A DNA stretch of 64,000 nt from Escherichia coli (GTDB lineage Bacteria; Pseudomonadota; Gammaproteobacteria; Enterobacterales; Enterobacteriaceae): assembly GCF_003991155.1 (NCBI RefSeq), contig NZ_CP031293.1; one strand, given 5' to 3'. Positions within the stretch are counted from its first letter, which is position 1. Every line of letters starts with the position of its first letter. Of this stretch, positions 57,801-60,800 are shown one piece after another. A program made the position numbers.

Positions 57801-60800
57801 CTTCCAGCGAAGGTAACGCAGGCAGGCTACTTAACGTATCTGGCAAAGCACCGGAGGCACTAATAGCAATCGGCTGAATCCGCATTACCGGATGCGGCTT
57901 ATCAAACGGCGCAATCGCCATCCCCATCTGGCTGACCGGCAGCGTCACCAGGTCAAATGGTTTGTTGTCGTTAACCTCCACCAGCACTTCAAAACGCTCG
58001 CCCATCAGCACCGGCAGTTCGCTCACCTTCACCGGTTCAGGTAGCAGACCACCGTCGCTGGCAATCACATAAAGCGGGCGATTGTCGCTGGTGGCGAAAT
58101 TGAGCGAGCGGGCGTTACAGCCATTGAGTAAACGCAGGCGCAGCCAGCCGCGCGGGGCAGCGTGTTGCGGGTAGATTGCACCGTTGGTCAGCAACGTATC
58201 GCCAAACCAACCCACAGCGGCGGTCATCACATCCAGTTGATAATCAATCTGCCCGTCAGCGTTAAATTTTTTATCCTGAACAATCACCGGGACATCATCA
58301 ATACCCCACTGTTTTGGCAGCATTAATTTCAGGATCTCGTCATCTTCAATTACCACCAGCCCAGCCAGCCCCATCGCCACCTGTCGCCCGGTCTTGCCAT
58401 GTTGATGTGGATGGAACCAGCAGGTAGCGGCAGGTTGATCAACGTTCAACGTCACCGAGCGCTTGCCACCTGGCGGAATAATTCCCTGCGGGCCGCCGTC
58501 GACTTCACCCGGTACTTCCAGCCCGTGCCAGTGCAACGTCGTCTCTTCCGTCAGTTGGTTATAGATATCAACCGTTACCGCTTTGCCGCGCTGTAATTTC
58601 ACCGCCGGCCCCAGCAGATTGCCGTTATAGCCCCAGGTGGTCGCCGTTTTCCCGCCAAAGGTGGACTGGCCTGCGCCAATAGTTAACTGAATGCGATTAC
58701 GGGCATCGGTCGTGAGCAAATCAGGGATCGGTAACGTTGGGCGTTCTGCCGCAAATACTGCGCGGCTCCACAGCGGCAAAGCCGAAGCCACACCCAGCGC
58801 GACGGAATATTTTAAGAAATCACGACGTTGCATAGTTATTTCCTTATTCTTAAGCAGGCGAAACAAAATCAAACGTTGAGCATAGTCCTTCCCCTTACGG
58901 GAAGGTCAAGCCGCAGACACAATTTAATCGACAATAATGGTCGTCGCCTCGCTCGCAGTGTGCTAACGTTTATCTTCTTTAAGCCCCTGGTAGAAGCAAT
59001 GAAGACGTTTTTCAGAACAGTGTTATTCGGCAGCCTGATGGCCGTCTGCGCAAACAGTTACGCGCTCAGCGAGTCTGAAGCCGAAGATATGGCCGATTTA
59101 ACGGCAGTTTTTGTTTTTCTGAAGAACGATTGTGGTTACCAGAACTTACCTAACGGGCAAATTCGTCGCGCACTGGTCTTTTTTGCCCAGCAAAACCAGT
59201 GGGATCTCAGTAATTACGACACCTTCGACATGAAAGCCCTCGGTGAAGACAGCTACCGCGATCTCAGCGGCATTGGCATTCCCGTCGCTAAAAAGTGCAA
59301 AGCCCTGGCCCGCGATTCCTTAAGCCTGCTTGCCTACGTCAAATAATCCCTGATACCTTTTTGTAGAAATATTGACCGTGCATCCGCGGTCAATGTTAGC
59401 TATTATGTTGCGCCCTTTTTTTACGGGTGTTAACAAAGGAGGTATCAACCCATGGCCGAAAAAAAACAGTGGCATGAAACGCTACACGACCAGTTTGGGC
59501 AGTACTTTGCGGTAGATAACGTTCTGTATCATGAAAAGACCGATCACCAGGATCTGATCATTTTTGAGAACGCTGCATTTGGCCGCGTAATGGCGCTGGA
59601 TGGCGTAGTACAAACCACCGAGCGCGACGAGTTTATCTATCATGAGATGATGACCCACGTTCCGCTATTAGCCCACGGTCACGCGAAACATGTGCTGATT
59701 ATCGGCGGCGGCGACGGTGCCATGCTGCGTGAAGTGACCCGACATAAAAACGTTGAGTCAATCACGATGGTGGAAATCGATGCGGGTGTCGTATCGTTCT
59801 GCCGTCAGTATCTGCCCAACCATAACGCCGGTAGCTACGACGATCCGCGCTTTAAGCTGGTGATCGACGATGGCGTCAATTTCGTGAATCAAACCAGCCA
59901 GACCTTTGATGTCATTATCTCCGACTGCACCGATCCTATCGGTCCCGGCGAAAGCCTTTTCACCTCAGCATTTTATGAAGGCTGCAAACGTTGCCTGAAT
60001 CCTGGCGGTATCTTCGTCGCACAAAACGGCGTCTGCTTTTTACAGCAGGAAGAAGCCATCGACAGCCATCGCAAACTCAGCCATTACTTCAGCGACGTTG
60101 GCTTTTATCTGGCGGCGATCCCGACCTATTACGGCGGCATCATGACCTTTGCATGGGCGACAGATAACGATGCCTTACGCCATCTCTCAACCGAAATTAT
60201 TCAGGCGCGTTTTCTCGCTTCTGGCCTGAAATGCCGTTATTACAATCCGGCAATCCATACGGCAGCTTTTGCCTTACCTCAGTATCTGCAAGACGCACTG
60301 GCTTCACAGCCGTCCTAAGGAGAAGATAAGAAATTGAAAAAACTGAAACTGCATGGCTTTAATAACCTGACCAAAAGTCTGAGTTTTTGTATTTACGACA
60401 TCTGCTACGCCAAAACAGCCGAAGAACGCGACGGTTATATTGCTTATATCGATGAACTCTATAATGCCAACCGTCTGACCGAAATCCTGTCAGAAACCTG
60501 TTCTATTATCGGGGCCAATATTCTTAACATCGCCCGCCAGGATTACGAACCACAAGGTGCCAGCGTCACTATTCTGGTGAGTGAAGAACCGGTCGACCCA
60601 AAACTTATCGACAAAACAGAACACCCCGGCCCACTGCCAGAAACGGTCGTTGCCCATCTCGATAAAAGTCATATTTGCGTACATACCTACCCGGAAAGTC
60701 ATCCTGAAGGCGGTTTATGTACCTTCCGCGCCGATATTGAAGTCTCCACCTGCGGCGTGATTTCCCCGCTGAAGGCGCTGAATTACCTGATCCACCAGCT

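Follow-up and report, generated by a model that had tools for sequence, protein, structure and literature searches.

The locus raises the question whether cueO on this Escherichia coli chromosome is preceded by an intact copper-responsive promoter of the MerR type. The window, meaning the whole stretch of 64 kb that was analyzed, had been read by eye as holding the palindrome CCTTCCC-N5-GGGAAGG inside a promoter TTGACC...TATGCT with a 19-bp spacer, the arrangement typical of the MerR family, and copper control of the multicopper oxidase had been taken as preserved. The two genes that flank the region are as follows:

57283..58833, minus strand: cueO CDS, 516 aa plus stop (NCBIfam NF008205 and RefSeq annotation)
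58999..59346, plus strand: yacC, pilotin-like lipoprotein, divergent neighbor (NCBIfam NF037975, 197 bits)

The NCBIfam equivalog NF008205, "multicopper oxidase CueO," covered the entire protein at 981 bits (cutoff 525), the corresponding DNA is annotated as cueO in RefSeq, and the N terminus, MQRRDFLK..., is a twin-arginine signal peptide. The ORF call runs the gene back to an upstream TTG (57283-58872, 529 aa), but the true start is the ATG at 58833, in agreement with the K-12 annotation. Because cueO lies on the minus strand, its promoter also reads on the minus strand, and it faces away from yacC. The predicted CueR-type promoter drives a copper homeostasis gene, the downstream ORF being CueO. 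The gene order gcd, cueO, yacC, speE, speD, yacL, acnB is the K-12 order, inverted, the window having the opposite orientation to the K-12 cueO locus.

Both strands were read directly between 58800 and 59010. On the minus strand the sequence is 5'-gtgtctgcggc TTGACC TTCCCGTAAGGGGAAGGAC TATGCT caacgtttgattttgtttcgcctgcttaagaat AAGGAA ataact ATG caacgtcgtgatttc, with caacg right after TATGCT. The elements of the promoter and leader are the following:

58904..58909, minus strand: cueO -35 hexamer, TTGACC (direct reading)
58885..58903, minus strand: spacer TTCCCGTAAGGGGAAGGAC, exactly 19 bp (counted and matched by pattern)
58879..58884, minus strand: -10 hexamer TATGCT of the cueO promoter (direct reading)
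58887..58905, no strand assigned: predicted CueR operator, dyad CCTTCCC-N5-GGGAAGG (inverted-repeat search)
58834..58874, minus strand: cueO 5' UTR, with a putative 5' end
58845-58840, minus strand: Shine-Dalgarno sequence AAGGAA of cueO
58833-58831, minus strand: cueO start codon ATG

The palindrome, the spacer, and both hexamers that the original prediction had placed between 58850 and 58925 are thus all present inside that interval. The repeat finder returned dyad arms at 58887-58893 and 58899-58905, i.e. 7 + 7 nucleotides, 5 nucleotides apart and 100% complementary. The published core CCTTCC-N7-GGAAGG is contained within this dyad without mismatches. The dyad lies within the spacer and shares 2 bp with the -35 hexamer, and its start is 72 nucleotides upstream of the cueO ATG. 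The spacer exceeds the sigma-70 optimum length by 2 bp. From the usual gap of 5-9 nucleotides downstream of the -10 hexamer, the first transcribed base of cueO would fall at about 58870-58874 (minus strand). A generic sigma-70 promoter/terminator scan found nothing at the cueO promoter; this silence was expected and is uninformative, because the scanner takes spacers of 16-18 bp only and the MerR-type spacer of 19 bp falls outside that range.

The locus was then compared with E. coli K-12 MG1655, where cueO is also named yacK (b0123). Not a single base differed from the window in the promoter, operator, or 5' UTR, nor anywhere else in the 165-bp intergenic region. The compared stretch spanned 2.2 kb from gcd to speE and held 47 substitutions in total, distributed as follows:

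cueO CDS, 1551 nucleotides: 40 substitutions, with two amino acid changes, S191N and A464T
yacC CDS, 348 nucleotides: 5 substitutions, all synonymous, protein identical
cueO-yacC intergenic region, 58834-58998, 165 bp: 0 substitutions
other non-coding sequence outside the cueO-yacC intergenic region: 2 substitutions

The flanking coding sequences have diverged from K-12 by 1-3%, whereas the intergenic region is invariant. The invariance suggests a possible constraint that extends beyond the 31-bp promoter or, alternatively, a recent recombination patch.

Conservation within the species was assessed with a 401-nucleotide query around the promoter, which occurred in 5424 of the 5426 complete genomes of the species in a context annotated cueO/yacC. 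The 60-nucleotide promoter was likewise present in 5424 of the 5426 genomes, in 5197 of the 5424 as an exact match. Beyond E. coli, 80 cueO loci were collected from the Enterobacteriaceae, with one genome per species and protein identities of 74-98%; the genera included Escherichia, Citrobacter, Salmonella, Enterobacter, Klebsiella, Raoultella, Kosakonia, Kluyvera, Phytobacter, and others. A dyad with up to three mismatches from the core occurred upstream of cueO in 79/80 loci. The pattern TTGAC[CG]-N19-TA.GCT was found in 78 of the 80, with a spacer of constant length among these 78, and in 78/80 loci the dyad kept its register with respect to the hexamers while the flanks diverged. Among the 72 distinct orthologue promoter rows, TTGAC of the -35 hexamer was invariant and its sixth base was C in 70; the -10 hexamer read TA[A/T]GCT in 71. 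Information content reached about 2 bits at C-TTGACC, TT.CC, G.A.GG, and TA.GCT, compared with 0.1-0.8 bits in most flanking columns. The cueO (cuiD) promoter of Salmonella and the cueO promoters of Citrobacter, Klebsiella, and Enterobacter share the -35 hexamer, the 19-bp spacer, the dyad register, and TA[A/T]GCT with the window. This pattern amounts to an independent phylogenetic footprint, that of a promoter element bound by protein.

Other features of the locus varied. The distance from dyad start to ATG ranged from 60 to 72 nucleotides among the loci, with 60-63 nucleotides in most other genera versus 72 in Escherichia. In most other genera the right half-site was imperfect and read GGAGGG, not GGAAGG (53 of the 72 distinct rows); the perfect dyad of E. 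coli is the minority state among orthologues. Further conserved positions were noted. The base preceding the -35 hexamer was C in 72/72 distinct rows, and the CA that follows the -10 hexamer was also conserved across genera. An AT-rich, TTTATT-like block located 14-19 bp upstream of the -35 hexamer (1.0-1.5 bits) was conserved across genera and could be an UP element or an element of a yacC promoter. A CGCCTGC-like motif that follows the -10 hexamer at a distance of about 8-14 nucleotides, at or close to where the 5' UTR begins, was conserved across genera as well. Intestinirhabdus alba was the sole locus (1/80) where neither a CueR dyad nor a promoter with a 19-bp spacer was recognizable in the 200-260 nucleotides upstream of cueO; its 1.2-kb upstream flank contained no yacC homologue. 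The region upstream of its cueO (L076, 1000-1200) is GC-rich and unrelated.

The regulator itself is not encoded in the 64-kb window. In K-12, cueR is located about 375 kb from cueO. It was found in 5424 of the 5426 complete E. coli genomes, and on this basis the source strain probably carries a functional cueR. One genome, NZ_CP025892.1, contains cueR and has a cueO promoter region 100% identical to that of the window. Activation of cueO by CueR in K-12 is reported in PMC8169799, PMC5329002, and PMC9396075, each with reference to Outten et al. 2000, and both copA and cueO are described as CueR-activated (PMC5329002, PMC9909328, PMC9396075). A PcueO-lacZ fusion serves as a CueR reporter, with positions -74 to -1 relative to the ATG taken as the promoter (PMC9396075). 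This segment corresponds to 58907-58834 of the window and includes the whole dyad. PMC12589874 offered no information on the cueO promoter.

In the following account, the binding of CueR, its distortion of the DNA, and the induction by copper were taken from the literature, whereas the anatomy, the K-12 identity, the register shared with PcopA, and the conservation were computed here. A CueR dimer, encoded elsewhere, would occupy CCTTCC-N7-GGAAGG, which lies in the 19-bp spacer, and would contact the DNA from the side facing away from RNA polymerase. As long as Cu(I) is missing, the two hexamers would be too distant and out of phase, leaving the promoter weak or repressed; apo-CueR on the same site is reported to repress (PMC5329002, PMC9909328). 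Binding of Cu(I), or of Ag(I) or Au(I), to CueR would kink and under-twist the spacer, and this distortion would realign the hexamers for sigma-70 and switch on cueO transcription. It has been described that CueR bends and under-twists the 19-bp spacer from the face opposite RNA polymerase, upon which sigma-70 recognizes the hexamers, and that a shift of the CueR core site by 1 bp alters activation (PMC8169799). The product would be the Tat-exported periplasmic multicopper oxidase CueO, expected to convert Cu(I) to Cu(II). Taken from its sequence, the element in the window is very probably the chromosomal cueO promoter, a MerR-type sigma-70 promoter with a single CueR operator. The chromosomal cueO appears to keep its native copper-responsive control, the CueR half of the switch being one that we infer.

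One alternative is a chance inverted repeat, or neutral sequence with no regulatory role; GC-rich short palindromes occur often, and CCTTCC-N7-GGAAGG has five further hits elsewhere in the window, each with two mismatches. The exact core, however, has a single match in the 64 kb, and the combined pattern TTGACCTTCC-N7-GGAAGG-NN-TANNNT matched once in the window and in none of 100 dinucleotide-preserving shuffles. Moreover, the sequence is the same as the CueR target reported in the literature (PMC8169799, PMC1526738), and position and register are kept across the roughly 80 species. Because of this phylogenetic footprint, a chance palindrome is effectively refuted and has a negligible probability. 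It would also be conceivable that the dyad is used mainly by another MerR-family sensor, i.e. a CueR paralogue of the GolS/HmrR type or a plasmid-borne one, and not by chromosomal CueR. The CueR and HmrR signals are almost identical, and Salmonella has a CueR paralogue with a CueR-type site (PMC1526738). In addition, orthologues vary at positions 8 and 18 (promoter numbering, symmetry-related), which are weakly associated (Fisher p = 0.04, without correction for phylogeny). Such inner dyad positions help to tell CueR from GolS. The window, however, has the canonical CueR-type core with C/G at positions 8/18, as in K-12, which possesses CueR and is not known to carry GolS, and cueR is a core gene in E. 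coli. Use of the dyad mainly by another sensor is accordingly rated very improbable. Symmetric covariation in the dyad was not relied on, the association being weak and p = 0.04 uncorrected for phylogeny.

A further alternative concerns the neighboring gene. The "yacC-yacK divergon" has been given as a carrier of a CueR site (PMC1526738), 78 of the 80 loci have a divergent yacC homologue ahead of cueO, and the whole intergenic region is invariant relative to K-12; the site might therefore act on yacC too, or instead of on cueO. Against such a CueR-controlled divergon, the hexamers that bracket the dyad face cueO, and around the dyad no promoter with a 19-bp spacer directed toward yacC was found. 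The operator edge is 93 nucleotides from the yacC ATG, which marks the far end of the 165-bp intergenic region, and by the MerR mechanism a site acts only on the promoter in whose spacer it lies (PMC8169799). An action on yacC is thus considered improbable, though less so than the use by another sensor. A somewhat broader proposition, still unlikely, is that the 165-bp region carries regulation beyond the single CueR site, possibly a CueR-linked or an independent control of yacC. It is raised because of the K-12 invariance together with the AT-rich block and the CGCCTGC-like 5' UTR motif that are conserved across genera. If it were true, including CueR-linked control of yacC, the copper regulon would reach a gene of unknown function. 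Beyond the divergent arrangement, nothing was found that supports another MerR-family user or an effect on yacC. The sequence, conservation, and literature comparisons made yielded no evidence against a CueR-controlled cueO promoter, and this remains the preferred reading.

Candidates acting at the RNA level were also considered for the leader. Shuffled sequences fold more stably than the cueO 5' UTR with its start region (z = +1.1), for which no stable RNA fold was obtained, and an Rfam search across 58300-59500 at E <= 1 returned no match. On the basis of these two results, a riboswitch, an attenuator, and a terminator were rejected. The dyad, moreover, lies upstream of the presumed transcription start, and no T-run follows it. 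A second inverted repeat, TTAAGAA/TTCTTAA at 58812-58818 and 58847-58853, brackets the ribosome-binding site. It was taken as a chance occurrence, being outside the predicted fold and not conserved in other genera.

Insertion elements were observed in the window and at cueO copies of other strains. An insertion of about 1.06 kb at 51680-52742 of the window, missing from the closest E. coli genomes, interrupts yadG, an ABC transporter ATP-binding gene. NZ_CP029747.1 aligns to the window in two pieces with a gap exactly at 51680-52742. The insertion matches "IS30-like element ISApl1 family transposase" (ISApl1, IS30 family) at 99.5% identity, and its terminal inverted repeats are located as follows:

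51675-51697 and 52718-52740: ISApl1 terminal inverted repeats

ISApl1 is the element that mobilizes mcr-1; among the 5426 complete E. coli genomes only 234 carry it, frequently on a plasmid.

The plasmid pE6474.2 (NZ_CP116983.1) carries a second cueO and a truncated gcd between two copies of ISVsa5, an IS10-like element (L084, 1685-6180). Here the end of the IS adjoins TGCTCAACG, inside the cueO -10 hexamer (TA|TGCT; junction at L084 3000/3001). This plasmid copy would not be CueR-regulable in the MerR manner, because the -35 hexamer and the whole dyad are lost. Plasmid places numbered 10 for the 401-nucleotide query versus 3 for the 60-nucleotide promoter. On the chromosome of E. coli ES4 (NZ_CM184348.1; L086, 61-172), the IS10-like ISVsa5 stands directly after TATGCTCAACG and separates an intact CueR promoter from cueO. 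The junctions in ES4 and pE6474.2 use the same 9 bp, TGCTCAACG, corresponding to 58874-58882 of the window, which is consistent with a 9-bp target duplication at one site. The shared junction sequence resembles the IS10 target preference GCTNAGC. In both ES4 and pE6474.2, cueO is cut off from its own -35 hexamer and CueR site.

In sum, the cueO promoter with its CueR site is already known, intact, ordinary, and identical to that of K-12. Since 2000 the CueR-controlled cueO promoter has counted as a textbook example of the MerR type, and this further copy adds little scientifically. Its value is that of a positive control for motif reading: the original prediction had held that regulatory motifs can be read reliably from the raw sequence, and the coordinates, spacer length, and dyad obtained by eye were all correct. 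The intact chromosomal promoter also contrasts with the plasmid-borne and IS-disrupted cueO copies in other E. coli strains.

Besides K-12 cueO itself, a close characterized relative is the copA promoter, the CueR site of the crystal and cryo-EM structures (PMC8169799). Its K-12 sequence was taken from NC_000913.3 and aligned with the window without gaps from the -35 through the -10 hexamer. PcopA shares TTGACC, the 19-bp spacer, and the half-sites CCTTCC and GGAAGG at identical offsets, and its dyad likewise overlaps the -35 hexamer (PMC8169799). The MerR-family architecture claimed for the window was thereby borne out, with the dyad in a 19-bp spacer and the hexamers and dyad in the same register as in PcopA. 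A spacer length or dyad unlike those of characterized CueR sites had been named as grounds for refutation; in the alignment with the copA and cueO sites both agreed, and since neither differs, the prediction stands. The two promoters differ in the central 7 bp, CGTAAGG in cueO versus CCTTGCT in copA, and for this reason the cueO arms are perfect over 7 bp compared with 6 bp in copA. Where cueO has TATGCT as its -10 hexamer, copA has TAACCT; the 2 bp between dyad and -10 hexamer are not the same, and the cueO 5' UTR is about 12 nucleotides longer than that of copA.

On a wider scale, the CueR core was published as CCTTCC-N7-GGAAGG in a 19-bp spacer (PMC8169799; PMC1526738), and the signal obtained for CueR by comparative genomics is ACCTTCCC-(5)-TGGAAGGT, with candidate CueR sites preceding cueO in E. 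coli, Salmonella, and Yersinia (PMC1526738). MerR-type promoters in general have spacers of 19-20 bp (PMC8169799, PMC9909328, PMC1526738). The MerR promoter of Tn21/Tn501 merT and the ZntR, CadR, PbrR, and HmrR systems also place a dyad in a 19-20-bp spacer and are activated by DNA distortion (PMC9909328, PMC1526738). These systems, however, have other half-sites and respond to another metal, and the cueO site of the window fits the CueR/HmrR signal, not that of MerR or ZntR (PMC1526738).
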